In this document: in pieces, positions 11,870 through 45,832 of the stretch | Layout of the letters: each line of letters begins with the position of its first letter | Numbering within the stretch: position 1 is the first letter of the stretch | DNA from: a virus | IMG/VR virus record: IMGVR_UViG_3300042549_007727 | Length of the DNA stretch: 64,000 nucleotides | Reading direction: 5' to 3' (one strand) | The notes under the pieces: model-generated | Seen by the model: the letters and a program-made list of their open reading frames with translations, nothing else | What the model was told of the DNA's origin: nothing | Database searches by the model: none | Made by a program: the position numbers and the translations under genes

Positions 11870-11973
11870 TGTATGTCTCCTTATTAGTATTTAAAATGTA
11901 GGGTATTCCCTAATATCAATTGTACCAAGCGGGGTAGGATGCGAATTAGGTTGGATTGGTGTAGGCTGTTGAT

Positions 11974-26359: not shown

Positions 26360-26368
26360 ACTTCTCTC

Positions 26369-27238: not shown

Positions 27239-27285
27239 GCTCCTTAGTGCTAGACTTCCATCGTCTATAGAAAGGACAGCTAAAC

Positions 27286-27615: not shown

Positions 27616-27722
27616 CTTTTAACGAATCATAAGAAGCCGGCCCGGTTCAATGTAACCGCGGTCGGTTTTCTTTTTTCTAGAATGAACTTGACAAATCAAA
27701 ACCGGCATGCTACCGTGCAAGA

Positions 27723-28127
27723 ATGAATCTTTATACATACAGAGTTATACGGGAAGTCGCTTTAGATTTCTATAGAGAGAACGGCATGGAAGTCCACTTT
27801 GACCCAGAGCTGTTCAACGGCGTGCTTGTAGTACAAGCGCCGGACGAGGAAACCTCGGACCGCATACGTAGCACATTCACGGACATAAGGATGTGGGAAA
27901 AAGTAGAAGATGAAGAAGATGAACTCGAGTCTCTAACGGAGGAAGAGTTTGCTGACAAATTAATTGCGTCTAGTATTTTGAGCGAAACCGCTAAAGAAGA
28001 TTTGCAAGAAATTAATCCAGACATTAGAACGGCAATTGAAAGACTTATAGCCGACGGCGAGCTTATGGAAGAAAACGGAAGGTATCGCCTCACGGAAAAA
28101 GGAAAGAATTCCCTAAGAGATAAGTAA
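27723..28127 (+). CDS. Hypothetical protein with a winged-helix-like C-terminus
   Basis: TTGACA promoter; L...G......GRYRLTEKG. Confidence 0.55.
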   Translation: MNLYTYRVIREVALDFYRENGMEVHFDPELFNGVLVVQAPDEETSDRIRSTFTDIRMWEKVEDEEDELESLTEEEFADKLIASSILSETAKEDLQEINPDIRTAIERLIADGELMEENGRYRLTEKGKNSLRDK

Positions 28128-29007
28128 CTTGACAAATGCCGGCGTGCGCGCTATAGTAACTCTTATGAATGAAACATGCGAGCTCTGCGGAGCAACGGGT
28201 AAGGGAACAACGGCGTGGGGTGGCTGGTGCCACGACTGCGATAATCAAATGTCGGAAGCAGGTAACTAATGAACAACAACATGGAGCTAGAGCTCACCAG
28301 AAGCCAAACGGAGAGCTTGATGTTTACTCTCATGAGGATTCTTTTTGACAAGAAAACCGAGCTAACCGAAGCGGCTCGCGCAGACCTAAACTCTATTTAC
28401 GGAAGACTGGTCAATGAGCTTGAGCTTACAAAAGACTAACGGCGCGCCTAAGGCGTGGCTGTGTTCACGCGCTAACGGTTCGGATGACGGCGTGCGCCGT
28501 TTGTCGCACGCTAGTTGCGTCTGCGATGCGTACTACATGTTCAAGTGCTCCGACTGTGGAGACTGCACCCAGTGCACGGATGAGTACTACATGGTTGAAG
28601 ACGAGGTCTGGTACTCAGCGATAACCGCTAGAAGCAAACCAGCAATACTTTGCATTGGTTGCCTGGAGTCGCGCCTGGGCAGACTTTTGACGAAAGATGA
28701 TTTCTCAGACGCGCCACTGAATTCCATGCCATTCTGGCCAAGGTCCGAAAGATTGTCGGCGCGCCTAAATCAATAGTTGCGTTTGTCAGTTACATGTGCT
28801 ATAGTCCAAGTACTAAATAGGAAAGGACACAATGACAGAGAAATCTTTCAATGTCAGTTTTATAACAGACAGAGTAATAGTTAGCACAACAGTCGAAGCT
28901 GATAACGATACAGACGCCCATAACAAAGCCCTAGAGGAAGTTAGGTATTACTTAGGGCTAGACCTAGTCCCTGTTCGTTATCAGATAGAAGTAGAGAAGG
29001 TCTAACA

Positions 29008-29337
29008 ATGATTAGATACCAAACAACAGCTAGTTTTAGTTTTTCAACCAACATTAGACCCGAGCTGGGATTAGAAAAAGAAACCCGCGAAGTCATAAGA
29101 TACCTCATAGAAGAAGAGGGTATTGATTCCTTTTTGGATAAATTAGAGTATGGAGATGTTGAGCAGATAGAAGTCAGTGAAGAGGACATGGACGCTACCC
29201 AAGATAGCGACTTACTAATTCCAATGGACAAAGTCAAAGAGATGTTCACAGCTGTGTCCCTAGGAATCCTTGAGGTAGAAGGACTGACCAAGGAAGAAGC
29301 AGAAGAGGCACTAAAAAGATTTCCAAAGGAACAGTAA
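29008..29337 (+). CDS. Acidic hypothetical protein
   Basis: ORF track. Confidence 0.6.
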   Translation: MIRYQTTASFSFSTNIRPELGLEKETREVIRYLIEEEGIDSFLDKLEYGDVEQIEVSEEDMDATQDSDLLIPMDKVKEMFTAVSLGILEVEGLTKEEAEEALKRFPKEQ

Positions 29338-29895
29338 ACACGCCCATAGATTGCTTGACAAATTTTTAGAATTATGCTACGTTTGTCCTATCAAACAGAA
29401 AGGGGAAGCCACATGGACTTCTATGGAAACCCAGAAATCAAAAAGGCCTATCAGGCCGGCTTCAATGATGGACTCCAATGCGGAGTAGATAATGCACGAG
29501 AGTTCGAATACATTACTGAAGAGCAGGCAGAAGATTTGCTGACTGAACTAGTGAAAGAGGAAAACTAATTATGACAATGGACGAACTGATGGAATACGTT
29601 TTGAGGGAACTACCTGACGCCGTTTTTGGTGAGGACAATGCATCAGGCGAGATTGTTATCGCGACAGGTCTCATAGAAAAATCTGATGGCGAGCCACTAG
29701 AAAGAATTGAGGACTAGTCATGGCGCTTAGTCACAAAGAGTTCACCCAGATAATGGAAGAACTAGAACGAATTGAAAACGAGCCAGCCACAGAGTGCGCG
29801 TGCCGTAACTGCGCCGAGGTCGAGCTTTACAGCAGACTTTATTGCAGAGACTGCTATGACATGGCTTGCTCAAAAACAGACGAGGACATGCACTA

Positions 29896-30369
29896 ATGGG
29901 ACTAGACATGTATCTAGAAGCTAGACGTTTTGTCAGCGGATGGAGTCACACCAAGGAAGAAGAGAAAGCAATCTTTGATTCTCTAGTGAAGGCAATCAAC
30001 ATGGACGGCCTGCATGATGAGAGATTTGCCACGGTAAACGTGAACGTCGCTTATTGGCGTAAGGCTAACCACATCCACAACTGGTTCGTGCAGAACGTGC
30101 AAGACGGCGAGGATGACTGTAAGCAATACCACGTCACTCGTGAAAAGTTGTTAGAGCTTGAGCAACTTTGTAGAGACGTTTGTCAGGCCGGCACGGCTGA
30201 TGTGGCGAGCGCGAAGTTGCCTCTTGCAACGGGGTTCTTCTTTGGGTCAGACCAGTATGACGAATACTATTTCGAGCAGACCGACTGGACAGCCAAACGG
30301 ATTGCCGAGCTAATGATAGCTATCCCAGATGACGGCATGCTGGACTTCTACTACCAGTCAAGCTGGTAG
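29896..30369 (+). CDS. Conserved phage protein (MGLDMYL...YWRKAN.IH.WF family)
   Basis: Recognisable N-terminal and YWRKANHIHNWF motifs; start at ATG 29896. Confidence 0.7.
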   Translation: MGLDMYLEARRFVSGWSHTKEEEKAIFDSLVKAINMDGLHDERFATVNVNVAYWRKANHIHNWFVQNVQDGEDDCKQYHVTREKLLELEQLCRDVCQAGTADVASAKLPLATGFFFGSDQYDEYYFEQTDWTAKRIAELMIAIPDDGMLDFYYQSSW

Positions 30370-30849
30370 GCCTGCGTAGCTAACGGCGAGCGCATCCCAA
30401 ATCAACGGCGTGCGCTCGCTGTATGCTATACTCATGCGCTCAATAGAACTGCACCACTTTCAGACCGATAGGGACGTAGAGCTTGCTCTAACCTCTGGAC
30501 TAGCACTGCCAGAACAGCTAGCCATGACGGACTGCACTGAGTGCGACGCAAGACTGTGTTACTCAGTCTCAGACTCGAACTTTGTACCATTTGTACTAGT
30601 GATTGATGAAAGCGACCAAGATTGGGTTCTATGCGAAGATTGCGCAAGCCCAATACTTACGCTGACAGACACCTTTTTCCCCCCAGCAGTGGGTAGCCAC
30701 TTTTCTGATTACGAGGATTTTGAGCCTTTTTGATGTATCCACTTTTTACGACAAGGTAGACACGCCCTAAAAATACTCGTCAAAAGAACTTGCGAAATGT
30801 CAGTAGACCCCTGTATAGTTGGACTTACCAATGAAAGGGGAAATACCAA

Positions 30850-31368
30850 ATGGGTATGGATGTTTATGGCAAGAAACCAACCAACGAGGTTGGCGAGTAT
30901 TTTCGCAGAAATGTTTGGGGTTGGCATCCTCTATGGGATTATGTAGAGAACAATCACCCAGAGATTGCGGAGTTAGTTGAACACGCTCACAGTAATTCTG
31001 GAGATGGCTTGGATGAGGAGAACTCAAAAAAGTTGGCACAACTTTTGATGAACGACTACAACTCATCTAAAGTTATTGACTATGTTGATGAGCGTAATCG
31101 TCAGCTTTCAGAGCTTCCTTTTGAGGATTGTCAAATCTGTAAGGGAACAGGAATTAGAAGTGATGAACTCGGCGTTGAAAGTGGCTGGACAACTAGAGAA
31201 CTAGCACCAGACATAGCAATCATTGTTGGTCGCACTCATGGTTCTTGTAATGCTTGCCAAGGAGTAGGCAAGCGAGAGAACTGGGCTACCAACTATTTCC
31301 TAGAGCCTGACGACATAAAAGAGTTTGCCGAGTTCCTTGAGAACTGCGGTGGCTTTGAGATTTGCTAA
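30850..31368 (+). CDS. Phage protein with DnaJ-type CxxCxGxG zinc finger
   Basis: CQICKGTG and CNACQGVG. Confidence 0.7.
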   Translation: MGMDVYGKKPTNEVGEYFRRNVWGWHPLWDYVENNHPEIAELVEHAHSNSGDGLDEENSKKLAQLLMNDYNSSKVIDYVDERNRQLSELPFEDCQICKGTGIRSDELGVESGWTTRELAPDIAIIVGRTHGSCNACQGVGKRENWATNYFLEPDDIKEFAEFLENCGGFEIC

Positions 31369-31793
31369 GGGGGTTTAGAAAATGGAAAAACTTTTTTGCT
31401 TTAGTTGCGAGGACGAACTTACTGCGAAAAACACTTCGTCTTACGAGGGGTTTGACAGTTCGGGCTATCTAGTAGCTAACAGGATTGCGAAAATTGGTAA
31501 GGACATGTTTATCAAGTGTGACCCATGCTTTGATGCGGACATTGACAATTACCTAGACAATCTCCAAAGCTAAGACCTAGGGAAAGACCCCTGCCTAGCA
31601 GGTTCAACGCCCGAAGCAACCTGAGCCAAGTTGTAAAACTGGCTCACTAAATCTTTCAGGGGCGTGTATCCACTTTTTACCTGGGACCCCCCGAAAAAAC
31701 TTTTTACGAAATAAGTTTGACAAAAGATGAAAAGTATGGTTTACTTCTTACATGGCAAAAAGCCATAGACACAACAAGGAAAGGGGGAAGTCA

Positions 31794-32399
31794 ATGACTT
31801 CCACAGCTACACCAAAGATTGTAGGCAAGGCACTCTACCTAGAGCTAATTGCCGACAACACCATAGACGCAGACAAGCTAAGAAAAGTCTTGGGTTGGCA
31901 ACACGCAGGCACAAGACAGATAATTATTTTCCCAGAGTATCAAGACGATACAGGGAAAGTTTGGGGTTCAGTAGTTATGAATCGCATTATCTCTAGTCAC
32001 TCACCTAGAAGCCAATGGGACATTACTTTTATTGACAGGTATAGACCAAACATAGGTGCGTTGAGGGTGGACGACAGTTATCACAACTACCCAGAATACG
32101 AGCGTCCAGTTTGGGACACACTAACAAATAAAGAGAAGTTTGATTCTCACAAGTTGGCGTTGGATTCAACCTTGAGAAAAATTATTTTGTCAAGTGATTC
32201 CGAAATAGATTCAACTGGCAATAGAAAATTGACAGCCCTACAAGCCTTGAGGGTTAGAGATAACAAGCCAATCGCAGTAGAGATTACTGACGAGGACATG
32301 GTTGAACTTCACATGAAGTCAAAAACTCCACAGGCAGTAATTCGCAGAATCAACAAGGTTCGTGAATCCATTTCTAGTTTCCCAGCGAAACTCGCATAA
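31794..32399 (+). CDS. Hypothetical protein upstream of the AAA+ ATPase
   Basis: AAAGGGGG RBS before ATG 31794. Confidence 0.7.
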   Translation: MTSTATPKIVGKALYLELIADNTIDADKLRKVLGWQHAGTRQIIIFPEYQDDTGKVWGSVVMNRIISSHSPRSQWDITFIDRYRPNIGALRVDDSYHNYPEYERPVWDTLTNKEKFDSHKLALDSTLRKIILSSDSEIDSTGNRKLTALQALRVRDNKPIAVEITDEDMVELHMKSKTPQAVIRRINKVRESISSFPAKLA

Positions 32400-32441
32400 C
32401 CTAAAAATAGATACAGACACAACAAAGAAAGGGCGGAAGCC

Positions 32442-33503
32442 ATGTATCAACAAAAAGTAATAGCAGAACACACAGCACCAGACCTAGCAGGAATCAACTA
32501 TGACCAACTGTTAGAACAACTTGTCGGGGCAGTAAGGGGTTCAAGTTTCGGAGTGACAACTTCAATTCTTGACGAACACCTAACACCAGCAGGTAGAGCA
32601 ACACTACGCACTAAAGGTAAAGCAGGTTCAACACTTTCAACTCCAGCTAAACTAGATGAAGCAGAGCCAGCGAAGCTAGAGGAAGTTATGGAATCAGTTG
32701 CGAACTTAGAGGGAGAGGAATCTTACTCACGACCTAATGGCGACCTTTACTATGGTCGCAAGTGGGGCGACAATGTAGATGTTGAAGTTCTACGCAAAGC
32801 CAGAGAAGCAGGACAGTATGTAATGCTCTATGGAGTTCCTGGAACTGGAAAGACAGCGTGCGTTGAAGCTGCTTTTCCAGATGAACTTTACACAGTTCTT
32901 GGTTCTGGCGACACCGAAGTTTCTGACTTGGTAGGTGGCTATGTCCAAACTCCAAGTGGCGGTTTTGAGTGGGTGGACGGAAGTTTAGTAAAAGCAGCTT
33001 CCGAGGGTAAAGTTCTACTGATTGACGAAATTGGTTTGATTGACCCGAAAGTTCTTTCGGTTGTCTATGGACTAATGGACGGCAGAAAAGAAATTACAAT
33101 CACACAGAATCCAGAGCGAGGCACAGTAAAAGCTAAGGAAGGATTTTTTGTAGTTTCGGCAACTAACCCTAATGTCGCAGGAGTTCGTTTGTCAGAGGCA
33201 CTTCTATCTCGTTTCGCTATTCAGGTTGAAATGACTACTGATTGGAACTTGGCTAGGAAACTTGGAGTTCCGCAGAGTGCGGTTGTTGCTTCACAGAATC
33301 TAGCAAAGAAACTAGAAAATGGTGAAACTTCTTGGTCGCCACAAATGCGAGAGTTGCTTGCGTTCCGTGACTTGTCCAAAATGTTTGGAACAAAGTGGGC
33401 AGTCCAAAACTTGCTTGCTTCCGCACCAGAGATTGACAGACCAATCGCTAGTGATGTATTCACCAGAGTATTCGGAGAGGCAATCCTGCCAGCAAAGATT
33501 TAG
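32442..33503 (+). CDS. MoxR/CbbQ/CobS-like AAA+ ATPase
   Basis: GVPGTGKT Walker A, LLIDE Walker B, ATNP, ALLSRF. Confidence 0.92.
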   Translation: MYQQKVIAEHTAPDLAGINYDQLLEQLVGAVRGSSFGVTTSILDEHLTPAGRATLRTKGKAGSTLSTPAKLDEAEPAKLEEVMESVANLEGEESYSRPNGDLYYGRKWGDNVDVEVLRKAREAGQYVMLYGVPGTGKTACVEAAFPDELYTVLGSGDTEVSDLVGGYVQTPSGGFEWVDGSLVKAASEGKVLLIDEIGLIDPKVLSVVYGLMDGRKEITITQNPERGTVKAKEGFFVVSATNPNVAGVRLSEALLSRFAIQVEMTTDWNLARKLGVPQSAVVASQNLAKKLENGETSWSPQMRELLAFRDLSKMFGTKWAVQNLLASAPEIDRPIASDVFTRVFGEAILPAKI

Positions 33504-33634
33504 TGAGTGGGTTGTGTCCTCACTAAAGGGTGGGGAAACGCAAGGTTTTTTCTTGTTTGATTTGACTTGCGTTTCTCCCCCAACTACTATACAATTTAGA
33601 CATAACAAAAAAACGCCAAATGAAAGGGAAGCAA

Positions 33635-35488
33635 ATGGCACACTACAAAGTAAAAGGTAAGTCAAGACTTACAACACGAACAACTACAACCAACCCAGAG
33701 TGGCTAAGAGTTTGTTCACAGATTGGTCGCTTGGTCAATGATTGGTCATGGCGTTCAGATTTAGTTGTCTATGGTGGAGAGGATTCTGCCGAGGGCAAAG
33801 CTATCGCTGCTTTTTATTCAGACATAGCAGAGATTGAAGTGAACTTGCCGAAAGCGTTTGGAGAACTTACGCCAGCAGATTTTGTCGGCGACTTGACTAA
33901 AAAAGAAACGCAGTATGAGTATCCAATGGTGACAGGCGTTCTGTATCACGAAGCACTACACGCACGCCACACGAATTGGGACACTTCAATTTTGTCAGAG
34001 GCACTAGACCCTAATGAGCAAAGAGCTTTTATGTTGCTAGAGGAATCACGAATTGAAGCAAAGGGAATCAAAGAGCGACCAGAGCTTAGAAACTTCTTGC
34101 GTGCTTCTGCTTTAGACATGGCACTAGACGAAGTGACTACAGACACACTCGCAGGTTTGGCTAGTGATGTTTGGAATACAGCACGCCTAGCAGGACTTTC
34201 AGTTTCAAGAGTGGATTCAGGAGTTCTTGAAGTTTCTGACATTACTGACATTTACAGAGAAGTAGTTTCAGTTCTTGGTCAGGACTTGTTTGACGAACTA
34301 AGAAAAGTTTGGATTGAGTTTCAGGCACTAGGCGTTCCACAGATTGAGCGAGCTATTGAACTTGCTAAGAAGTGGGTTGAACTATTGCGTGAATCAGACC
34401 CAGAGGGCGAGCCAGATTCAGGTTCGGCAGGTGACATTTTCGGCGAGCCAGATGAATCAGAGGGCGACAGCGAGGGTGGAAGCGGAAGTGAACTGTCTGA
34501 CACCATGAAAGACATGATTGAAAAACTTTCCGAATCTGCTAGTCACTCGGAGATAGAAGCGAGAGAGGCACTTGCCCAACAAGAGCAACAAGACAAGTGG
34601 GGCGAGGAATCAAAAGCAAGGCAAGAGCAAGCAAAGAATAACAACCAACGCAAAAACATAGCCAAGCAAATCTTTCACAAGCCACACTCCCAAGAGGGTT
34701 CGGGTTCTAACTCGTCTGTATCCTCTCGCAGACAGCCGACAGGGACAGAGCGAGCAAGTGCGGTAGAGATTGCTAAGTCATTAGACAAGGCAAAGTATCG
34801 TGAGCGTTCGGTTCATGTTCGCAAAAGTCAGACACCACAGGGCAAGCTGATTATGAGAAACGCCGTCCAGAATAGGGCAGTTGAATCTATTGGCAAGCGT
34901 GGAGAGTTGCCAGCGTGGAAGTCAAAGACACGCAAGCACACAGACGACCCAACGCTAAGGCTTGGAATCATGGTGGACATTTCAGGTTCTATGGGTTCTG
35001 CTATGGAAGCTATGGGACAGACAGCGTGGATTATGTCCGAGGCAGGTCGCAGGATTCAAGCTGAAACGGCTATGGTGTATTACGGCTCTGGCGTGTTCCC
35101 AACTCTAAAGCGTGGACAGCGTTTGAGCGAGGTGACGATTTACACAGCACCAGACGGAACTGAAAAGTTTACCGAAGCGTTTGAAGCGATTGACGGCGAG
35201 CTTGGACTAACTTTTGGGGACGGCGTGCGTATGTTAGTTGTTGTGTCGGACGGAAACTACACAGGCACAGAACTACAGAGAGCAACCGAACTACTAAGAG
35301 AGTGTAAACAAAACGGCGTGGCGGTTCTTTGGATTACACCGAGAGGTTGTAATGGCATGGGGGCGAGGTCAATAATTTCTGGTTCGGCGTGGGGAGTTCA
35401 CTTGGACGACCTAGACACAACGGAGATTGCGAGGCAAGTCGGCAAGTCGGCAAGCGAAGCATTGGGTCGGGTGGGTTCACTCACCTAG
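33635..35488 (+). CDS. vWA-domain partner protein with N-terminal HEXXH domain (CobT-like)
   Basis: HEALH motif, EESRIE, acidic linker, MIDAS DISGSM, VVSDG. Confidence 0.88.
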   Translation: MAHYKVKGKSRLTTRTTTTNPEWLRVCSQIGRLVNDWSWRSDLVVYGGEDSAEGKAIAAFYSDIAEIEVNLPKAFGELTPADFVGDLTKKETQYEYPMVTGVLYHEALHARHTNWDTSILSEALDPNEQRAFMLLEESRIEAKGIKERPELRNFLRASALDMALDEVTTDTLAGLASDVWNTARLAGLSVSRVDSGVLEVSDITDIYREVVSVLGQDLFDELRKVWIEFQALGVPQIERAIELAKKWVELLRESDPEGEPDSGSAGDIFGEPDESEGDSEGGSGSELSDTMKDMIEKLSESASHSEIEAREALAQQEQQDKWGEESKARQEQAKNNNQRKNIAKQIFHKPHSQEGSGSNSSVSSRRQPTGTERASAVEIAKSLDKAKYRERSVHVRKSQTPQGKLIMRNAVQNRAVESIGKRGELPAWKSKTRKHTDDPTLRLGIMVDISGSMGSAMEAMGQTAWIMSEAGRRIQAETAMVYYGSGVFPTLKRGQRLSEVTIYTAPDGTEKFTEAFEAIDGELGLTFGDGVRMLVVVSDGNYTGTELQRATELLRECKQNGVAVLWITPRGCNGMGARSIISGSAWGVHLDDLDTTEIARQVGKSASEALGRVGSLT

Positions 35489-35844
35489 ACCTAAACGGAG
35501 TGCTTGCCCAGCGGTTGAGCGAAAGTCAGGACTTCCCCCCTTTGACCTGATAATAGTTCCCAACGGACAAGACACTAGAAACCCCTATCAAGTGCTTCCC
35601 CCAAGTCTTGGTAGGGGTTTCGCCTTTCTCGGTTTGACGGACGAGATTGGGTGGAATCTGAATCCCTGGCACAGACTTTTTACGAAAGATGAAAAGTCAC
35701 CAGCAGAAAAAGCTGACGAAGGCGTATCCACTTTTTATCTGGCTAAAAACTTTTTTGACAAAACACTTGCTTTTTCTGTAAACCCTGTTAGGATTGGAAC
35801 TATCCAATCGGAACGAAACAGAAGTAGTTCCAGAGGGGGGATTT

Positions 35845-36195
35845 ATGGCTAAGGTCATTTCCCGAACAGCCCCAGAGGTTGCGAAAGCAACTCCAAAGGT
35901 TGTCAAAGTTTCACGAAAAGTCGTGGAACTAATCAGCGAACTTTCCGAAGTTCGTGCTACATACAACTCGGCGAAAGCCAGAGTTGAGGAACTTCGTGAC
36001 GAAGTTCTTTCCCAAGTTGGGCGTTCCAATTTGACCCTTGTCCACAACAGCATTGAGGTCGCTCGTATCGTTGAGAGTTCTCCTGTGCGTGTAGATGAGG
36101 AGTTCTTGAAAGAGAACTATCCAGAGGCTTACCAAGCTTCTCTAAGGGCAAAGCCCCAACACACGATTCGCTCTGTCACACGCAAAGCGAACTAA
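35845..36195 (+). CDS. Hypothetical protein, paralog of 43591..43932
   Basis: Shared EL.EVRA...L.HN.IE.ARI...D.E.L...YPEA pattern. Confidence 0.7.
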   Translation: MAKVISRTAPEVAKATPKVVKVSRKVVELISELSEVRATYNSAKARVEELRDEVLSQVGRSNLTLVHNSIEVARIVESSPVRVDEEFLKENYPEAYQASLRAKPQHTIRSVTRKAN

Positions 36196-36357
36196 AGAAC
36201 TGGGCGGGCAGGGCGAAAGCCCTGTCCCCCATTTCATTTTTTATTTGACCTGACAATGTATCCACTTTTTACCAAAGGAAATGGACACGGAAAAAAGATA
36301 CCGAAAATGTCAGGGACTATGCTAAGATTGGAACTACCACAAAGAAAGGGGAACACC

Positions 36358-36708
36358 ATGAGAGGCGAGCCATTAGAGCTTGACGAAGTTGCTGGATTAT
36401 CTCTAACAGTATTGGGCGTGCTTGTTGAGGCATACATCAAAGAGGGATACAGCGACCCGACAATGTATAGAGCAATACGGGCTTCAACCGAACTGGCTAA
36501 AAACTTCAAGGCACGGCTAGAACTAGACGGACGGGACACGGACGGCGTGGACGACTTGATTACTAACCTAGAGCTAACGGCTATGGAATCTGGCGAGGTA
36601 GTAAACCGAATCATAGAGCAGAACGGCTGGCAAGAAACGGCTGGCGAGTGGAGTAGCCCTGCTAGTATGACTTGTGATAACGACTGCGAACATGACGGCA
36701 AGGAGTAG
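36358..36708 (+). CDS. Hypothetical protein
   Basis: AAAGGGG RBS before ATG 36358. Confidence 0.65.
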   Translation: MRGEPLELDEVAGLSLTVLGVLVEAYIKEGYSDPTMYRAIRASTELAKNFKARLELDGRDTDGVDDLITNLELTAMESGEVVNRIIEQNGWQETAGEWSSPASMTCDNDCEHDGKE

Positions 36709-36715
36709 GGACGGC

Positions 36716-37015
36716 ATGGACTTTCAGACTGCGTTCGGCGAGGTTGTGCGTGAGCAACGGCGTGCTAATGAGATTACAATGCGAAGCGTGACGGATAGGG
36801 GACACCTAGCGTTGGGATACCTGTCCGAAGTGGAACGGGGACACAAAATGCCCTCTAGCCTAATAATTGCGTCCATAGCAGACGGACTGGGTATAGACGC
36901 AAGCGAGCTGATTATTCAGACGGGTATGCGTATGTCCAATGTTCCTGAAAGCCCTGAAAGCCTGTTCAAGCTAAGGGACAGAGATTGGGCTAATCAGTAT
37001 TCAGATTTGAGATAG
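36716..37015 (+). CDS. XRE-family HTH regulator, ClgR-like
   Basis: GEVVR..R....T.R.V.....LGYLSEVERG.K..SS matches the actinobacterial ClgR signature. Confidence 0.75.
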   Translation: MDFQTAFGEVVREQRRANEITMRSVTDRGHLALGYLSEVERGHKMPSSLIIASIADGLGIDASELIIQTGMRMSNVPESPESLFKLRDRDWANQYSDLR

Positions 37016-37017
37016 AG

Positions 37018-37051
37018 AAAGCCCCCCTGACAAAAGTTAGGGGGATTTTTT
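37018..37051 (+). terminator. Intrinsic terminator (cassette end)
   Basis: CCCCCTGAC-AAAA-GTTAGGGGG followed by a T-tract. Confidence 0.8.
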
Positions 37052-37162
37052 CTTGGCTGGTAGTGTATCCACTTTTTGCTGAACATTTTTTGTTTGGTTT
37101 TTGTCGGGGGTAGGGTATAGGATTTGATTGTTATAAAAACTCCAACAGGAAAGTAGGGGAAA

Positions 37163-37399
37163 TTGAGTTATTATCCAGAGGGTTCTATGGCTGGTTCTGG
37201 CATAGATTCCGTAGAAGTTCCGTATGACGAGTTTGTCTGCGAAGCTGACGATTGTGGCAAGGTGAACGAAGCTAGTGAAGCTATGACAGACGACTATGGC
37301 AATTACGAAGTTGAGTGCCAGTTCTGCGGTAGCTTTTACTTTAGAAGTTCTATTGCCGAGGACAAGGCAGATTGGGCAGCGAATAATTATGATTACTAA
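37163..37399 (+). CDS. Small Zn-ribbon protein
   Basis: C....C...CxxC; AGGGG RBS. Confidence 0.6.
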   Translation: MSYYPEGSMAGSGIDSVEVPYDEFVCEADDCGKVNEASEAMTDDYGNYEVECQFCGSFYFRSSIAEDKADWAANNYDY

Positions 37400-37739
37400 T
37401 CCAAAACAGGGGACACCAATAAAAAACAGCAAGGGCGAATTACGATACGAATACACTTGCCCGAAGTGTTTTGACGAATACAGGGTGGACGAAAAGACAC
37501 ACGCTTGGATTCAGACCTTAGACAGACTGCCTAAGTGTTCGCCTTGCTACTTGTAGCCTAAAAAGTTTCCCCCGAATAATCAGGAACAGCGATTCCGATT
37601 CGGGGGATTTTTTTATGCCGTCAATGTGTATCCACTTTTGCTGCGGCAGGGTAAAACTTTTTATGTGCGGTGAAAAGTCGTAGGTAGGTGATAGTATTCA
37701 AGTATCAAGCAACACTAACCACGAACAAAGGGGAACAAG

Positions 37740-38051
37740 TTGAAAAGATTGCCTAACTACAAGATTGGCGCGGAGATTAGTGCGCTAAACACTTTCACGA
37801 ACTACAATGGCACAATTAGCGCCGTTCGGGACGAGAATAATTACAGGATTACACACTGGAACACTGTAATTCTTGATTACAACACTGACACCAACGAGAT
37901 TATTTCGCTACAAGATAGCTACATTAGCCAGACAACCAGCGCGCTAGTTGGGCGAATCTTGAGGGCGTTGCCATACGCTTCGGTTGAAAGATACTTGGGC
38001 TACATGACGCCGTCAAAAGATAAGCGCCGTTTGGTCGGTATGCTTCGATAA
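37740..38051 (+). CDS. Hypothetical protein
   Basis: AAAGGGG RBS; terminator follows. Confidence 0.65.
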   Translation: MKRLPNYKIGAEISALNTFTNYNGTISAVRDENNYRITHWNTVILDYNTDTNEIISLQDSYISQTTSALVGRILRALPYASVERYLGYMTPSKDKRRLVGMLR

Positions 38052-38192
38052 AAAGCCAAAAAGTTAGCCCCGCTTCGGCGGGGTTTTCTTTTTCCGTGAA
38101 AAGTTGCGCCGGTCGCGGCGTGTATCCACTTTTTGATGAAAGCTTTTTGCGGATCCTTGATCTGTATAATTGTTGATGAAGGGGGAACACCA

Positions 38193-38507
38193 TTGAATAA
38201 TTTCTCAGAGCGAATCATTGCCAATACCGAAGATGGACGCCGTGAAGTGCGCGTCCTGCGTCTTGCGGTAAGTCTTGGCGACGACTTGGCATACATTGAT
38301 TGGGAGCCAAGCGGGGAGCTTTACTTTATCAAAGTCCCCGTCGAGTATCGCCGTCAAGGAATCGCTACAAAGCTATGGCAGGACGCTCAGGAACACGCGA
38401 GAAGCTTGAACTTGCCCGCGCTAACCCATAGCGAATACAGAACTGACGCGGGCGATTCTTGGGCTAAGTCCCTAGGCGAAAAACTTCCACCAAGAATCCG
38501 CGCTTAG
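38193..38507 (+). CDS. GNAT-family acetyltransferase
   Basis: V..EYRRQGIAT.L acetyl-CoA motif A; AGGGGG RBS before TTG 38193. Confidence 0.7.
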   Translation: MNNFSERIIANTEDGRREVRVLRLAVSLGDDLAYIDWEPSGELYFIKVPVEYRRQGIATKLWQDAQEHARSLNLPALTHSEYRTDAGDSWAKSLGEKLPPRIRA

Positions 38508-39190
38508 TTTTTTGTAGCCAGGTGTATCCACTTTTTGACGAGGCGACACGCTTGCTTGCGGGTTCTTGCTTTTGTCGGTGGGTTGGGGTAAAGTCAAACT
38601 AACCAAGCAAGAGGGAAGGAAACAAAATGATTGGTAGAAACAAAGATGCGGAAACAGCTTTTGATATGGCAATGAAGTTGCTGAACAACCCAAGTGAGGA
38701 AGTTCAACAGCAAGTCTGGGACAAGTGCCACGCTGACGAAGTAATCCAAAGGTCGGTAAGGCTTTACCTTTACAGCGAGCCAAGCTACACACCAAAGGCT
38801 CTATACAACCTTCACCAAAAACTCGCCGAGTTGGTGTCCTAATGGTTGTTCGCCCGCTGGAGAATACAGTTTGCTATCAATGCCCTAAGAAGATTATGGC
38901 AATGGTTGGTGCGGTTCACCCGCTATGCGTTGAGTGTCAAGAAAGTTTTGACGATTGGTTTGAACACGAGCTAGGAGTTTTCAATGGCTAAGCAAGTTTA
39001 TTTTGTTGTTGCGGTGGACTTAGATGAGTGCGTGCCGTTTATAGATGATGACACCTTTACAGCAAGGTTCAGTTCGGCAGAGCAAGTTTGGGACACCGAA
39101 CTACAAGAGTGGCAAGAAGACCCTGACCAAGAGTTTTACGATAAAGCGTTGAAGATTTTGAACACCATACCTTTAGCGAAAGACTAGTCA

Positions 39191-39502
39191 ATGAAACACA
39201 AAAAGAGTAAAGTTCAAGGCAAGTCTAGGCACGCCGAGTATCTTCGCCGAGTAGATAACGCCGATAGAGTTGCGGTAATGCTAAGGGGCATAACTTTATT
39301 TTGCGCTTTTATTTTTGTAATGAGGATAGTCGCTGGCGTTGATTCAGTTTCAGAATACCTAATCCTTTATGCGGTTGTGTTTGTGGGCGGGGTTAGTGCT
39401 TCGCTTGCCGAATACTTTTTGTTTAGGGCTTACCAAAGTCGCTACTCAAAAAGTCGCCGACAAAGTTTTTGGGATTTGTTCAACACCGAACTTTCCAAAT
39501 AA
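39191..39502 (+). CDS. Two-TM membrane protein
   Basis: Two hydrophobic segments. Confidence 0.6.
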   Translation: MKHKKSKVQGKSRHAEYLRRVDNADRVAVMLRGITLFCAFIFVMRIVAGVDSVSEYLILYAVVFVGGVSASLAEYFLFRAYQSRYSKSRRQSFWDLFNTELSK

Positions 39503-39640
39503 AACTTCCCGCTAGGACTTCCCCCCTAGCGGGATTTTCTCTTTCCAGCTGCGTATCCACTTTTTGATAGAGATTTTTTTGTGTGCGTTTTGTCGGTGGA
39601 CTATGCTATGGTTGAAGTATCCAAACAAAGGGGAAGTAAA

Positions 39641-39832
39641 TTGAAGACAGATTCAAGAATAGCAATAGTTTCAGAGCTACCAAACTGCGACTTCTGCGGT
39701 GAACACGCTCGCTATGACGGAGCAACCAAACTTGGACCTTGGGCTTTTATGTGCCAGAAGGACTGGGTATCTCACGGAGTAGGGCTTGGGCTTGGCAAAG
39801 GTCAAGTTCTAATGAAGGAAGGAACTAAGTAA
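39641..39832 (+). CDS. Small Zn-binding protein
   Basis: CDFC....YD..T..GPWAFMC...GLG.G.GQ. Confidence 0.65.
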   Translation: MKTDSRIAIVSELPNCDFCGEHARYDGATKLGPWAFMCQKDWVSHGVGLGLGKGQVLMKEGTK

Positions 39833-40204
39833 ATGGCGACAACAGTTGGAGAGCTGATTGAACAGCTAAAGACGCTGGACCCCGACACAACAGTTGTGTT
39901 TCAGTATTTGACACACGAACACACCGACTTTTCAATTGACGATTTTGAGTCAAAAGCCGAGGCACTTGACTACACCAACTTCGCTGATGAAATGTCTATC
40001 ACGATGAACGAGTGGCTCGCCGAAATGGAGTAGCCACGCGACACCAAAGATTCCCCCGCGACCCCCGCGGGGGTTTTCTTTTTTGCCGGAAGGTAGCCAG
40101 GTGTATCCACTTTTTGATTCGGCTGCCGAAAGGGTTTTGTAAAAGTATTTGCTTTTTTCTTTTTGTGTAGTAAGATGAAACTCTAACGAAAGGGAGGTTC
40201 CTAA

Positions 40205-40597
40205 ATGGGAGCAAGAACAACTTGGAAAATAAAGACTAATGATTCGGGAGCTATTACTTGGCTTTACAGTCATTGGGGAGGCGACAGTAAGTTTGACACC
40301 ACTAAAGAGGCGTTGGACTTGGCTATGCCTCGCTGGGAGGATAGGACTTATGGAGCTAGGATTTTTATCAGTAGCGTAATTGGTAATTCTTGGAGTTCAC
40401 AGACAGGGTTTGGAATTACTTCAACCCTTGACACAGATTCCAACCCGTTTGAGGAAAGCTACACGCCTTACACAATTGACTTTGTGCGGAAAGTAGTGAT
40501 TCTTGAAGGTGTTCTCGGAGAGGACTGGGAGTTAGGCTTTGACGAGTTCACTAGACTAAACAGCGAAGCCGACTTGCTACTTCAAGGGACAAGGTAA
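40205..40597 (+). CDS. Conserved phage protein (MGAR...LYSHWGG family)
   Basis: GGGAGG RBS and motif. Confidence 0.65.
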   Translation: MGARTTWKIKTNDSGAITWLYSHWGGDSKFDTTKEALDLAMPRWEDRTYGARIFISSVIGNSWSSQTGFGITSTLDTDSNPFEESYTPYTIDFVRKVVILEGVLGEDWELGFDEFTRLNSEADLLLQGTR

Positions 40598-40879
40598 ATG
40601 GGAAACTTACAAGCTCAAGAAATTGCGAGCAACACCGAAATTACACTTGAACAGCAACTAACTTGGCACTTACAAGGTAATCACTATCCACCGATTCCAG
40701 TTAGTATGGTTCAGCCTTGTGTTGAAGCAATTCAGGCTTATTGGGAAGATGAGCTAGACACGGAGATTCAGTTGCCCGAAGGTGTTTTGTATCGGGGGAA
40801 GGAAACAGCCCCCGCTAGAGAAATAATCATCAATCATCACTTAGACGCTTGGTGTCAAGATGACGAAGATGAGTTTTAG
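40598..40879 (+). CDS. Hypothetical protein
   Basis: WHL.GNHYPP.P motif; coupled to the previous gene. Confidence 0.65.
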   Translation: MGNLQAQEIASNTEITLEQQLTWHLQGNHYPPIPVSMVQPCVEAIQAYWEDELDTEIQLPEGVLYRGKETAPAREIIINHHLDAWCQDDEDEF

Positions 40880-41935
40880 GATTAGCCCCAACTAACCCCC
40901 CAAATGCGGGCAATAGAGAGATTCCCCCTTTCTATTGCCCGTTTTCTTTGCGTGCCGGTAAGGTATCCACTTTTTACTGGGCTTGATTTTCTTTTTATGA
41001 AATACTTGTTTTTCTTTGTTAGTGTGTTATTGTTTATCTGTTGGGAAGTTCCCGACAAGAAACAAGAAAGTTGGGCAGAGAAGTGAAGTTTGTAATTAGG
41101 AGAGCAGTCTTAGGGTTGGTGGCTTTGCCAGTAATCGCTGGGACTTATGTTTTTATGTTTGTATTGCTAGGTTCGCTAAACAATACTTTATGGGGACTAA
41201 CCCTAGATGAAGTTTGGAATAACGGACTTTTGATTGGTTCGGTTAGTGCGGTTGCTTTCGCTTTCGCAACTCAGATTGACAAGCTAATTGCTAGATTGGT
41301 TGGTGAATAATGACTATCATTGTAATCAACCTAGACGGCTCAAGAACGCCTTACGGCTATTCGGCTCACTCATCAGACATCACCGATTACTATGACCGCC
41401 TAGTTGCGGAAAATAGAATCACCGCCTATGAGGTGATTTCCTAATGGGAGATTTTATTCTATTAGCGTTTGCTATCGGACTTATCTTTGGTGGCTTTACT
41501 CTTATGTTTTACAGTTTACTAACTGTAAAAAGAGATAACTACCGACCGAAGCATACACGCTCAACATACCTGCCCAACAGGAAAAGATAGTTCCCCCAAC
41601 TATCGGAAAGCCCTCGCCTTTGTGCGGGGGTTTTCTTTTTTCTGTTTTTTTTTTCTGACGAGAGCTGGTATCCACTTTTTGATGGAAGTTTTTTCGGCTT
41701 CCGTTTTGTCGGGCATTTATGCTAGTGTTAGAGCTACCAATTAGAAAGGTTATCAAATGGGAAAGTTAGTTGCAGAGCTAGGAACAAAAAAAGTCTTATC
41801 TCTAGTTGAAGGCGAAACAACAGTTTCGGCTTACTTACTCACGGAGAGTGAAGAGTTTCTTGCTGTCCTAAAGAGTGCCGACAGTCTAGAGCAGGTTCTA
41901 GATTGGGTAGAAGAAAACTACTAGGAAGGTAGAAA

Positions 41936-42286
41936 ATGAAATTAGCTCTAAAGATAACGCCAGATGGCGTAGCAACTGAAATTGACATAGCCACGGACGA
42001 ATTGAAGAAACTACAAGACGCGGTTGATGGTCTAATTCAACCCGTTGATTTTGAGTTCGGCTCTAGGTATTTGACAATGTGGGTGAATGAAGAAGGACTA
42101 CTTAGAAACGATTTGGAAATGAATCCTGTCGCCTTTCTGTTTTACTCTTCACCGATAATGGGAAACATTATCATAACTGGCGCGCCAGATGAAGATGGCG
42201 AAACAACAAGCCTAGACAGCGCGACAGAGTTAGATGTTCTAAAAAGGATTTGTGAAAAGTTCCTAAGTTCTGTTGAACAAGTCTAA
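41936..42286 (+). CDS. DUF3846-like protein
   Basis: L..LQ.AV.G.I..V...MWVNEEG......N..A. Confidence 0.7.
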   Translation: MKLALKITPDGVATEIDIATDELKKLQDAVDGLIQPVDFEFGSRYLTMWVNEEGLLRNDLEMNPVAFLFYSSPIMGNIIITGAPDEDGETTSLDSATELDVLKRICEKFLSSVEQV

Positions 42287-42458
42287 ATAAAAAACTAAAG
42301 CAACCCCGCCTTTGCGCGGGGTTTCTTTTTATCTTCCGTAAAAAGTCTGCCGTCAACTGGTATCCACTTTTTGATGCCTCTCTTAGTTGCGGTTGCTTTT
42401 TTCTTGCGTTTGTGTTATCTTGATTTGGCTTATAGCAACACTTAGTAGAAAGAGAAAA

Positions 42459-43397
42459 ATGAAAAGACAAATTAGTATCGCGCTCGCGGTGGCATTGCTT
42501 GCCGTTGGGACTACCCCCGCTAGCGCTGGAGTTCAAGGTGAAGTTAGTTCTTGGGGTCTAGATAGAGTAGACCAAACAGCGGGAACAGCAACACTAGATA
42601 GAAGCTACAAATACCCCGACAGCGCTGGCGCTGGAGTTCGCGTGTATGTTTTAGACACGGGAGTTCTTGGAACGCTACCTGGTTTCGGCGGGAGAGTTCT
42701 TACAGGGTTTGACACTCTCGCGGGACTTAGAACGCCACATCAGGCTAATCTTGACTGTAATGGTCATGGAACAGCCGTAGCTGGAATCATTGCTAGCGCG
42801 ACTTATGGAGTAGCTAAGAGCGCAACCATTGTGCCAGTTCGCGTTGCGGACTGTAAAGGTGGAATAGTTCCTGCCAACATTGTCAAGGGAATTGACTGGA
42901 TAATCAAGAATCACCCGCGCGGTACCCCTGCCGTTGTGAATCTAAGTATCGCGGTTGGTAAGACTAAGTTGGTTGATGACGCGATTACAAAACTCTACGG
43001 GATTGGTATAGTTTCAGTAGTTTCCGCTGGTAATCAAAACATAGACGCTTGTCGTCTAAGCCCCGCGGGAGCAACATACGCCCTTACCGTTGGGTCTATA
43101 AACATGAACGACCAAAGAACAAATACTTCTAACTTTGGCGAGTGTGTTTCTATGTACGCCCCTGGTGGTTTGATTACTACCGAGGGAACAAATGGTTTGC
43201 CCTCAACAAGAAGCGGAACATCTTTTTCCGCGCCTCATGTTGCTGGAGCAATAGCCTTGTATCTTTCAAGCAACCCTAAGGCAGACGCCCCCGCGACTGT
43301 TTGGGAGATTACAAGAAATGGTTTGAGTGGAGCTGTTGCTGACGCTAAGAGCGTTAGAGGCAATGTTCTACTCAACACCGCCTTTCTAAACAAGTAA
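42459..43397 (+). CDS. Secreted subtilisin-like (S8, proteinase K/aqualysin-type) serine protease
   Basis: Signal peptide; WGLDR.DQ; LDTG, HGT.VAG and GTSF.APHVAG triad motifs. Confidence 0.92.
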   Translation: MKRQISIALAVALLAVGTTPASAGVQGEVSSWGLDRVDQTAGTATLDRSYKYPDSAGAGVRVYVLDTGVLGTLPGFGGRVLTGFDTLAGLRTPHQANLDCNGHGTAVAGIIASATYGVAKSATIVPVRVADCKGGIVPANIVKGIDWIIKNHPRGTPAVVNLSIAVGKTKLVDDAITKLYGIGIVSVVSAGNQNIDACRLSPAGATYALTVGSINMNDQRTNTSNFGECVSMYAPGGLITTEGTNGLPSTRSGTSFSAPHVAGAIALYLSSNPKADAPATVWEITRNGLSGAVADAKSVRGNVLLNTAFLNK

Positions 43398-43409
43398 GCA
43401 ATAAGCAAA

Positions 43410-43442
43410 GACCCCCTGCCGTAATTGGCGGGGGGTTTTTTG
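43410..43442 (+). terminator. Intrinsic terminator (cassette end)
   Basis: ACCCCCTGCC-GTAATT-GGCGGGGGGTTTTTT. Confidence 0.8.
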
Positions 43443-43590
43443 CTAGCTGAAGGCGTGTATCCACTTTTTGACCTGTTGAAAAAACTTTTGCGGAATTGCT
43501 TGTTTTATCGGATTAGTATGCTATGATGATTACATCATCAAAAGATGATAATCCAAGCAACAAAAGCAACACCTAACAAAGGGGAATAAG

Positions 43591-43932
43591 TTGACAACAT
43601 CAACAACAACCGCAACAACAACCGCAACCAAGGCAACAAAAGTTGTTCTAGGACAAGTTCGGGAATTGACTGAGGTTAGGGCAGAAATTGCCAGACTGGA
43701 AAAACTAAAGTTGGCTCTCACCGCTGAAATTGAAAAGGCTTTTGAGGTTGACAAAGAAGCAAAGACCTCACGCTTTTCAACCCTTACTCACAATGCCATA
43801 GAGTTCGCAAGAATTGACTGGAGAAGCCGTAAGGGTATTGACTCAGAGAAGTTAGCCCTAGAGTTTCCTGAAGCGTTTGAGGCTTGCCAGAAGCCAACTG
43901 TTTACTCAGTAATAGTTTCCTTGTTCAAGTAA
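43591..43932 (+). CDS. Hypothetical protein, paralog of 35845..36195
   Basis: Shared motif; AAAGGGG RBS. Confidence 0.7.
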   Translation: MTTSTTTATTTATKATKVVLGQVRELTEVRAEIARLEKLKLALTAEIEKAFEVDKEAKTSRFSTLTHNAIEFARIDWRSRKGIDSEKLALEFPEAFEACQKPTVYSVIVSLFK

Positions 43933-45313
43933 AAGGGAGAGAGAAGCCCCCGCCGAAAGGTTGGGGGCTTTTCTTTTGCCAAAAAGTTTTACGGCGACTC
44001 GCGGGCTGTATCCACTTTTTGATTAGTCTTCCAGGTGTATCACGGGCTTAGGCTTTTTGTCTGTGGCAAATAGTATGCTAATGATTACTAGCCAATTGGT
44101 TAGTAGTTGGGCAACAATTATTAGTTTGGAGAATCATGAACATTAGTTCAGATACAAGGTCAACGCAAGAGTTGACTGTTGCGCTTATGGCACTAAACAC
44201 TACAACCCTTATTCCAACTGGATACGGGGTATCTCAGGACTGTGCAACAGCTATTGAGTTCTTGAAGCAACGCTCAGAACAGATGGCTAATGTTGCTAAG
44301 GAAATTGAGAAGCTACTAGGGGGAGTTCACCGTGGCTAAGTTTGTAATCACTAATGGCAGAGTTGGTAATGACAACGGTAATCAGCAATTTGTAGAACAC
44401 GCCTATTATCACCCTATGGGCAGGAAAGCCCTATTGAACAAGATTCAAGACCTAGCTAATAGAAGCGGATTAGAGTCTTGGGCAGAGCTATACACGGAAT
44501 GGAAAGATGAGAATAGGACTGGCAAAACACCGAATCGAATCTTCCCTAGAAAGCCGTATTCAACTTACTAACTAGATACCTCAGTAAGTAATGACCCCCT
44601 AGCTATACGGTTGGGGGGTCTTTGCTATGCGGTATGCGGTTGAATAGTTTGGATTCATGAATGCTTGATCATGCGGATAGCAAAAACAATTATTGAATTA
44701 GTTTTTTGATAGATCAGGTTGACCCCCCCATGAAATAAGCCAAAAATAATTAGCGGGCGGGCGGGCATACCCCCCTCAGAAACTTATAGTTAGTAATAAA
44801 CTTACTTAGGTCTTTTCTAGTTCTTTCAGCTAGCCCTCATAGACGCCCCCCTGTAAGCCTCACTAGAAAGACACCCAACTTGGACAGCTAATGCTAGACG
44901 CCCCCTCAGAGTAGTAGTCATAGATTCTAAAGTCATGACCCCCTAAGAAAGACAACCTTGTCTTGTAAAGTTCTTAGTAATCTAGTATCCTTGACAATAG
45001 ATAGTAATTTTTATTTTTCTAGCTTGAAGCAAGGACTAATTTTTATAAAGAACAATTTTGTATGGCGTATTCAACAAGAATTGTTTTTGGAAGACCCCTT
45101 CACTTTTAGGAAACAATTTTGAAGTCCTTCAATTTCATACGGCTACCCTCTCACCCGTCAAAAGCAGTAGACGCTAAGGTACTAATTCTTCCGTTACGGA
45201 CACCCCCCTCTTTTTAAAAAACGCAATTACCCCCTGCCCCAAAACGACAAAAAATCCGGAAAAAATTTTTCAAAAAAATTCGTCCAATAGCCCGATATCT
45301 ACATAGTGCTAAA

Positions 45314-45832
45314 ATGTACCTTATGCCCCGTAGAACAGCGCGAAGTCAGCCGCTACCCCCAGCCGAAGTTGAGTACCTAAACTCGCTTACAATAAACGCC
45401 CTTATCCCGAGAGTCAACGCACTGTATAACGCAGGGTGGGCGCTTCAAGCCATCGGGGAATGCCTATCCCCTAGACGCCCTAGATCCACGGTTCGCAGCT
45501 GGGTAGTTAAGTCTGCTGAGCTTGGGGCCCAAGAAGCAGTAGACGCCCCTACCCTCCCATCTCCTGTACATAAAACAGCAGCCGATGGGTATCAGAAACG
45601 CCGCCCTACATCTCCAGGTATCCCTGAGGACACTTTTGACGAGATTAGGTCCTTAGCGCCCCTAGCACGCTCCTACAGGGCCAAAATGGCCCAAACTAGC
45701 TCTGCGGCCGTAGCAAACCGCAGATTGACTGATATTTGCGCCAAATTGCACGAAAATGGCGTAGGAATAAGGGAATTAGCCGAGGCAGCAGGAGTAACAT
45801 ACCGCGCTATGTACAAGAGAATTAAGCTTTAA
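45314..45832 (+). CDS. Double-HTH DNA-binding protein
   Basis: GWALQAIGE...RSTVRSW and GVGIRELAEAAGVTYRAM. Confidence 0.7.
   Translation: MYLMPRRTARSQPLPPAEVEYLNSLTINALIPRVNALYNAGWALQAIGECLSPRRPRSTVRSWVVKSAELGAQEAVDAPTLPSPVHKTAADGYQKRRPTSPGIPEDTFDEIRSLAPLARSYRAKMAQTSSAAVANRRLTDICAKLHENGVGIRELAEAAGVTYRAMYKRIKL

Follow-up and report, generated by a model that had tools for sequence, protein, structure and literature searches.

The DNA considered here is a stretch of 64,000 nucleotides, referred to as the window (IMG/VR record IMGVR_UViG_3300042549_007727), from a large uncultured actinophage of lake water. It carries an array of small gene cassettes, each of which is preceded by a 13-bp motif, GTATCCACTTTT(T/G). 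The feature is real and is general to a clade of uncultured actinophages, in other members of which the motif is 13–17 bp long. On balance, the motif is best interpreted as a cis-regulatory upstream site that unites the whole array into one regulon and is, in addition, the joint for recombination between cassettes. The regulon would be the block of small, probably early host-takeover genes preceding the packaging genes. This interpretation draws on the number, orientation and confinement of the motif copies, their phasing to predicted promoters, the discrete motif classes that have switched in place, and the cassette junctions that lie on the motif.

The motif and its cassettes

A search of both strands of the window with one mismatch allowed yields 14 exact copies of GTATCCACTTTTT and one variant, GTATCCACTTTTG, at 37628, which ends in G. 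All 15 copies are on the + strand and are situated in gaps between open reading frames (ORFs), and no copy is present outside 30735–44020. The chance expectation, estimated from shuffled sequences, is 0.06 copies, and none of 100 shuffles reaches 15. The motif is asymmetric and displays no dyad symmetry. Nearly all copies are found 13–45 nt 3′ of a G+C-rich hairpin followed by a T run, and the next plausible start codon is 71–134 nt 3′ of each copy. An earlier note on this DNA had described 15 oriented intergenic copies on the + strand, with a variant at 37628 and none elsewhere, nearly all of them after terminators and about 70–135 bp before start codons. The search, the shuffles and the measured distances agree with this description, and the extended flanks that the note saw as common to the copies at 38524 and 40103 are real. 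The copies and the features adjacent to them are as follows.

30701–44650, + strand: whole array, a block poor in 4-bp palindromes
30735–30747, + strand: copy 1, 2 nt after the stop codon of ORF 30410–30733
30790–30819, + strand: predicted promoter of copy 1, TTGCGA-18-TATAGT
31666–31678, + strand: copy 2, upstream of the operon 31794–32399 / AAA_5 ATPase 32442–33503 / vWA 33620–35488
31717–31745, + strand: predicted promoter of copy 2, TTGACA-17-TTTACT
35724–35736, + strand: copy 3, upstream of 35845–36195 (paralogue of 43591–43932)
35767 (−35 box) and 35789–35794 (−10 box, TAGGAT), + strand: predicted promoter of copy 3
36258–36270, + strand: copy 4, upstream of 36358–36708 and of the ClgR-like HTH_3 gene 36716–37015
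37065–37077, + strand: copy 5, 3′ of the terminator 37023–37044
37628–37640, + strand: copy 6, the sole variant, with G as last base; upstream of 37740–38051
38122–38134, + strand: copy 7, 3′ of the terminator 38066–38085 and upstream of the GNAT gene 38193–38507
38165–38170, + strand: TATAAT box of copy 7, with the shortest motif-to-TATAAT spacing
38524–38536, + strand: copy 8, extended flank in common with copy 10; a reordering junction relative to L248/L249
39553–39565, + strand: copy 9, 3′ of the terminator 39507–39534
40103–40115, + strand: copy 10, 3′ of the terminator 40053–40073 and upstream of 40205–40597 / 40598–40879
40963–40975, + strand: copy 11, 3′ of the terminator 40906–40942
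41668–41680, + strand: copy 12, 3′ of the terminator 41605–41636; upstream of 41757–41924 and DUF3846 41936–42286
42360–42372, + strand: copy 13, 3′ of the terminator 42302–42323; upstream of the S8 subtilase gene 42459–43397
43457–43469, + strand: copy 14, upstream of 43591–43932; order relative to the subtilase cassette reversed in L248/L249
44008–44020, + strand: copy 15, the last, upstream of 44136–44339 / 44332–44571
44593–44620: terminator that closes the array
48989–50398: TerL

A cassette consists of an intrinsic terminator, the motif, a spacer of about 35 bp (or 35 ± 10n), a predicted host sigma-A-type promoter, a strong ribosome-binding site and one to four ORFs. Downstream of nearly every motif copy, a −35 box paired with an extended −10 box is predicted; the −35 boxes resemble TTGACA or TTGCGC, the −10 boxes are often of the extended form TGnTAnnnT, and a ribosome-binding site of the GGGGAA type follows. 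Terminator-like sites in the region number 44, against 18 expected. When the cassettes are aligned on the motif, conservation spans the 13–17 bp only, and neither the spacer, the promoter nor the hairpin is conserved. Thus the unit proposed in the earlier note (repeat, promoter, ribosome-binding site, ORFs and terminator) stands as a layout, but its promoters are not conserved, and the identical part is a separate upstream word. A comparison with Rfam gave no match in the 27–48 kb portion of the window.

The cargo had been described as heterogeneous, and the assignments hold: an AAA_5 ATPase, a vWA protein, a ClgR-like HTH_3 protein, a GNAT acetyltransferase, a DUF3846 protein and an S8 subtilase. 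The paralogous pair, 35845–36195 and 43591–43932, is real, with 33% identity over 81 amino acids (E 3e-9). After the array there are about 700 bp without genes (44621–45313), which contain C-rich repeats of the form GAC(G/C/A)CCCCC.

The phage and its relatives

TerL of the window is 73% identical to that of Actinomycetia phage DSL-LC01, whose genome of 129 kb was assembled from lake water, and about 62–64% identical to those of Microbacterium phages of 186–195 kb. A portal-to-protease block is found downstream of TerL, and the window also encodes two tRNAs as well as amidase and NlpC/P60 lysins. Gene order in DSL-LC01 follows that of the window: the recombinase, a lysin, the AAA/vWA pair and a long run of small genes with gaps of about 100 bp are followed by the terminase. 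The paper describing this phage makes no mention of promoters or repeats. A megablast search with the array found nothing in 50,697 phage records, and scanning IMG/VR for the exact pattern of the motif plus GA turned up single chance matches only. Relatives (about 130 related loci, designated here by G and L numbers) were retrieved with the TerL, vWA and 45314 proteins; loci L199–L249 come from lake metagenomes.

In all relatives that have such an array, the motif is confined to the block upstream of the terminase gene. G001 (129 kb) has 15+3 motif copies, all within 102–119 kb. The complete genomes G005 (154 kb) and G008 (152 kb) have, respectively, 16 copies of their word within 59–73 kb and 15 copies within 106–122 kb, and in each of these three genomes the word is held in a single block of 13–17 kb upstream of the terminase gene. 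The coding DNA of G001 and of its close relative G002 is only about 70% identical to that of the window at the nucleotide level, yet both carry the identical 13-mer (15+3 and 16 copies). Identity of the word at this level of coding divergence, with spacers that are not conserved, points to purifying selection on the motif.

The array of DSL-LC01 (L097), which lacks the motif, displays another repeat. At 24796–43306 there are 17 copies of an inverted repeat, GATTCTA-N12-TAGAATC, placed over an extended −10 box (TGTTATAAT), and a conserved leader, AACGACGAAAGGACAA, is also present. This inverted repeat looks like an ordinary dimeric operator. As it occupies the same array position, array-wide control appears to be a conserved theme whose implementation varies.

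Two further observations on relatives may be added. L246 has a UvrD-type helicase gene (11538–13172, minus strand) between the NlpC/P60 gene and the terminase region, which is absent from the window. L214 carries, at 5334–10862, a longer repeated unit that consists of GTTCCGACTTTTTCATTAGTAAGT and, after it, a short hairpin (AGTAAGT...ACTTACT).

Phasing to predicted promoters

For each of 153 motif copies, drawn from seven lineages, the best −35/−10 pair was scored over the next 130 nt. From the end of the motif 8-mer to the −35 box the distance is 33–38 bp in 73 of the 153 cases; randomly rotated downstream sequence gives a mean of 8.7 and a maximum of 17. The remaining distances cluster at 14, 24–27, 43–47 and 53–57 bp, and outside the main peak 59 cases are in phase with 35 ± 10n versus 15 out of phase (binomial p = 1.3e-7, an optimistic value). 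The motif centre is thus near −72, or in the alternative cases one turn nearer or one or two turns farther (−72 ± 10n), with the motif at about −65 to −78, approximately seven helical turns upstream of the predicted start.

A helically phased distance implies that the motif keeps to one face of the helix with respect to the predicted promoter, and because the spacers show no sequence conservation, it is the length of the spacer itself that appears to be under constraint. The distance between the motif and the upstream terminator is variable, unlike that between the motif and the promoter. Class I upstream sites have their centres near −61, −72, −82 and −92, and the motif falls into this series with respect to promoters that are themselves predicted. 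The suggestion in the earlier note that the repeat could be a master operator for the whole early region is supported by the helical phasing with downstream promoters, together with the discrete specificity classes described next.

Motif classes and switching in place

The relatives display at least 10 discrete motif classes, namely CCAC, TAGTTAT, TTTAT, GTGTTTAT, TTTAG, TTTTCAC, TTCCGAC, TTCAT, TTCGT and TTTTTCAT. The words of other lineages (GTATTCAT, GTATTCGT, GTATTTAT, (A/G)TAGTTAT, TTTTTCAT, GTGTTTAT, GTATTTAG, GTTTTCAC and GTTCCGAC) have the same form and the same position as that of the window: an 8-mer, then T5–6, then a lineage-specific tail. Arrays that are fully sampled have 14 to 36 copies. 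Within an array there is limited polymorphism, with GTATCTAC in 3 of the 18 copies of G001, and with G instead of A at the start in 5 of the 24 copies of G006.

The classes do not follow the tree of the vWA protein, which is itself encoded inside the array. They are interleaved on this tree, and well-supported branches force at least six changes for the CCAC class. The exchange can be seen directly in a comparison of L204, with 15 CCAC copies, and L201, with 18 TAGTTAT copies. Genes and intergenic DNA of these two loci are 83–87% identical, and the flanks align up to the motif, yet the class is exchanged at all eight aligned orthologous sites. The motifs differ at 7 of 16 positions, and at least five of the eight sites are inside contiguous high-scoring segment pairs. 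A second candidate pair, L214/L215, was dropped, since similarity between its members ends too close behind the vWA gene.

Recurrent, discrete classes that replace one another are the expected outcome when a reader and its site co-evolve, by analogy with the stoperators of Cluster A phages (PMC6550527).

Cassette gain, loss and reordering

Gene order in the left half of the array (AAA/vWA operon to HTH_3 gene) is the same in every lineage, and the right half is permuted. G001 and G002 are 97% identical, and cassettes of 528 bp and 437 bp are present in G001 only; both ends of each are on the motif. L246, which is 88–90% identical to the window, has an extra cassette of 466 bp, with a motif copy on either side, at the place of the window's single copy at 42360. 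Between the window and L248/L249, two cassette pairs are in opposite order, and the alignments end at −9 to +18 of the motif. By the author's count, about 11 of 38 internal alignment ends are within −10 to +20 of a motif start, compared with about 3% expected. That cassettes are shuffled, as the earlier note supposed, is therefore upheld by breakpoints on the repeat and by variation in cassette order among relatives. Since the same exact word flanks every cassette, the motif is in effect also a joint for deletion, insertion and reordering.

One smaller indel has a different boundary. The 67-amino-acid ORF at 44136–44339 is absent from L246, and the indel begins 126 nt after the motif, behind a promoter and leader common to both. 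This position suggests that single genes are also exchanged behind a fixed leader.

A proposed mechanism

The asymmetric site near −72 would be occupied by a sequence-specific and probably monomeric DNA-binding factor. This factor would touch the host RNA polymerase, or bend the DNA towards it, on one face of the helix, and all 15 promoters would switch together. The factor is most likely phage-encoded and specific for the motif class. Its effect may be activation or, equally, a shut-off by over-stabilization of the polymerase, as with protein p4 of phage phi29 from −71.

Protein p4 of phi29 has upstream sites near −82 (A3) or −71 (A2c), on one helix face, from which it activates or represses through the alpha subunit of the polymerase, and the outcome depends on promoter strength. 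The phi29 sites differ from the motif in that they are inverted repeats at a few promoters; here an exact asymmetric word is present 15–36 times.

The composition of the array may bear on the timing of its expression. In 30701–44650 there are 21 4-bp palindromes per kb, about threefold fewer than in the flanks (55–60 per kb), with two GATC sites and no TTAA. The same local dip is found in G001 (102472–119994) and G005 (59301–72572). Local avoidance of restriction sites would fit DNA whose exposure or expression comes before protective functions set in, and the depletion probably marks the array as a special, first-exposed expression class.

Candidates for a reader protein were sought by identity comparisons over 39 loci with three query genomes, and by per-column tests. 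The HTH_3 protein 36716 was rejected: its recognition helix, ALGYLSEVERG, matches phages of other classes and differs from that of G001. In the double-HTH protein 47997, next to TerL, both helices are invariant across classes, and the protein is for this reason more likely a packaging or general factor. No class signal is given by the HTH_17 protein 24507, the protein 45314, the Zn-ribbon protein 23444 or the families 30410, 31794 and 36358. Weak leads are provided by the DUF3846 protein (41936), although it is absent from G004, by 31794–32399 and by the paralogous pair.

A sequence search of 45314–45832 against the Protein Data Bank gave no match. Sigma region 2 and HU/IHF were not found in the relatives searched, including the complete genome G005. 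A search for a single-subunit RNA polymerase gave no match, but the control genomes gave none either. G001, G005 and G007 each have two WhiB-like genes, which are outside the range of the window. The reader may be encoded in the part of the genome beyond the window, or it may be a host protein.

Several points weigh against the interpretation of the motif as an array-wide regulatory site. Among the proteins encoded within ±10 kb of the array, none varies with motif class. The interpretation does not account for the joint change of class at 15–36 sites. The promoters used in the phasing analysis are consensus predictions, and orthologous and paralogous promoters are not independent, which makes the p-values optimistic. 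In the window by itself the phasing is weak, with six copies in the main peak, five in phase and four out of phase. Finally, a strictly oriented site just after terminators fits a roadblock as well.

Known systems and alternative explanations

The motif combines traits of stoperators, of the SPBRE sites of phage SPbeta and of PeSL elements, yet fails defining features of each. Like the motif, the stoperators of Cluster A phages, as in L5 (gp71) and Bxb1, are 13-bp asymmetric sequences, oriented with transcription, present in short intergenic gaps in 20–36 copies, and they vary between related phages in step with the specificity system (PMC6550527; PMC9283540). On this model a phage repressor bound to the oriented site would act as a roadblock, stopping read-through and insulating the units, as does L5 gp71. 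The length and asymmetry of the word, its co-orientation with transcription and the gaps of 13–45 nt after terminators fit such a role, and the lineage-specific variants recall the co-evolution of stoperators and repressors (PMC6550527). A roadblock nevertheless would leave unaccounted for why the distance to the terminator is variable and that to the promoter is fixed and helically phased. Stoperators are found on both genome arms, mostly away from promoters, where they block elongation in lysogens; here the sites are in one block of 13–17 kb, phased to predicted promoters, and no lysogeny module is evident. In addition, no gp71-like repressor was recognized among the proteins of the window, and none of its HTH proteins varies with class. 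A roadblock function is thus unlikely.

The repeats of PeSL (promoter-early stem-loop) cassettes in T4-type phages bound indels in plastic regions of the genome (Arbiol et al., 2010, PMC2839356; PMC4122927). The actinophage arrays are similar in having small ORFan genes, each with a sigma-70-type early promoter and a stem-loop terminator, both predicted here, and in having indels between close relatives that are flanked by the repeated element. They differ in what is conserved. In the PeSL it is a degenerate composite of promoter and stem-loop of about 100 bp; in the array, promoters and terminators are unconserved, and the constant part is an exact word of 13–17 bp, phased at about −72, in at least 10 switchable classes. 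Perhaps the repeat is a pure recombination linker of this kind, kept by cassette exchange, homogenized by recombination and read by no protein. Indel and swap junctions exactly on the motif, and cassettes with promoter and terminator that match the hyperplastic regions of PeSL phages (PMC2839356), would be expected of such a linker. However, 13–17 bp is very short for homologous exchange, and neither a phased distance to the −35 box nor discrete classes that switch in place between conserved flanks would serve a purpose. This explanation appears improbable.

In the SPBRE/MrpR (YopR) system of the Bacillus phage SPbeta, repeats of about 15 bp in the promoter regions of some ten units are under one master regulator (PMC10516654), and in this respect it resembles the array as interpreted here. 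SPbeta differs in being a temperate Bacillus phage, and neither class switching nor cassette junctions have been described for it. MrpR has a fold like that of tyrosine recombinases, and no tyrosine recombinase (PF00589) was detected in G001, G005 or G008, in a search that would miss a very divergent fold.

A further alternative is an intrinsic DNA element without a dedicated factor, in which the word and its T5–6 tract would either produce a phased bend or be contacted, in the manner of a distal UP element, by the alpha subunit of the polymerase. Every class ends in the T5–6 run and most classes are A+T-rich, and the helical phasing fits phase-dependent upstream curvature. But perfect identity of 15–36 copies and discrete switching are unexpected of a degenerate structure, a conserved host alpha subunit gives no reason for 10 or more classes, and the CCAC class is not A+T-rich, so that such an element seems quite improbable. 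A true UP element was rejected, since UP elements are degenerate A+T-rich sequences at −40 to −60 that abut the −35 box, and the motif is exact and located at about −65 to −78.

The array has points in common with integrons as well: small genes in an oriented array, a repeat at the boundaries (attC/attI), and cassettes that are gained, lost and reordered there. A phage recombinase could in principle capture and shuffle cassettes at the repeats, and the window has a resolvase-family gene, the serine recombinase at 1430–2125, which the earlier note put forward as catalyst of an integron-like platform. The attC sites, however, are imperfect palindromes that fold, integron cassettes are promoterless, and a gene for an IntI tyrosine recombinase is found next to them. 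The motif, by contrast, shows neither dyad symmetry nor a hairpin, each cassette has a predicted promoter of its own, and no tyrosine recombinase was detected in G001, G005 or G008. The serine recombinase was also rejected as catalyst, since its identity does not track motif class: it is 82% identical in G003, of another class, versus 74% in G001, of the same class, and it is present in the motif-less DSL-LC01. An integron-like mechanism is very improbable. The resolvase-family ORF itself has only 231 amino acids and is followed by the overlapping ORFs 2109–2510 and 2464–2796, conserved in G001 and G007; the 1430–2796 segment may be a split or frameshifted larger recombinase.

Lastly, a site for a host factor is scarcely probable, be it a set of weak DnaA boxes with a TATCCAC core or a site for another host regulator that differs between host species. 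That no phage protein was found to track class would suit a host factor, and class switching could follow host switching. The motif matches the DnaA box, TTATCCACA, at 7 of 9 positions, a resemblance to which the earlier note had drawn attention, but every one of the 15 copies has more than one mismatch to the box, nine other classes are unlike it, and GTATCTAC is tolerated in G001. Moreover, clusters of two to five perfect boxes are present, separately from the motif, in one or two array gaps of G001 (114449–114481), G003 (30439–30479), G004 (as joined, 27513–27566) and G006 (17100–17132 and 18036–18068); the window has no such cluster. The clusters illustrate the form that a DnaA site takes in these hosts. 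These observations together indicate that the motif is not the DnaA site of these phages.

Other repeated sequences

A second short element, (G/A)ACACGG(C), is enriched 13–23 nt beyond the core in many G003 and G004 cassettes; about 14 of 21 and about 18 of 36 of them, respectively, have ACACG no more than 60 nt from the core. The element is present in a few cassettes elsewhere, such as at 30760, 36285 and 38546 of the window, and is the same across motif classes.

Another recurrent word, GACGCCC(C/T)TA(T/C), is located at 838, 1430, 1661, 3787, 4159, 45539, 47568 and 48108 of the window. It is often at start codons, with the result that unrelated proteins begin with M(T)DAPI, and this 11–12-mer is found in many relatives as well (L111, L115, L129–L135 and L245). 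In L099 and L144, dense tandem repeats of GATCAGATCTA / TTAGATCTAG, which are iteron-like, are present a few kb upstream of the terminase gene.

Biological significance

The motif defines a testable regulon in abundant uncultured freshwater actinophages, in which hardly any early gene has a known function. It marks every member promoter, its phased position predicts the mode of control, and its classes predict which phages cross-regulate one another. The junctions provide direct sequence evidence for how ORFan regions turn over, in that whole units, each with its promoter, genes and terminator, are swapped at a short, exact sequence word. In-place switching at dozens of sites also makes the question of how a cis-regulatory code and its reader change together accessible to metagenomic study.

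More tentatively, motif and reader may constitute an exchangeable "address" of the whole early regulon in a lytic phage group, with at least 10 classes that switch at all 15–36 sites at once. Such a switch might come about through an active short-patch conversion, or through recombination that the reader itself promotes at the sites. If so, the address would act like heteroimmunity among co-infecting relatives, because the reader of a resident phage would mis-regulate a newcomer of the same class, and the array would represent a platform of promoter-carrying cassettes distinct from both integrons and PeSLs.

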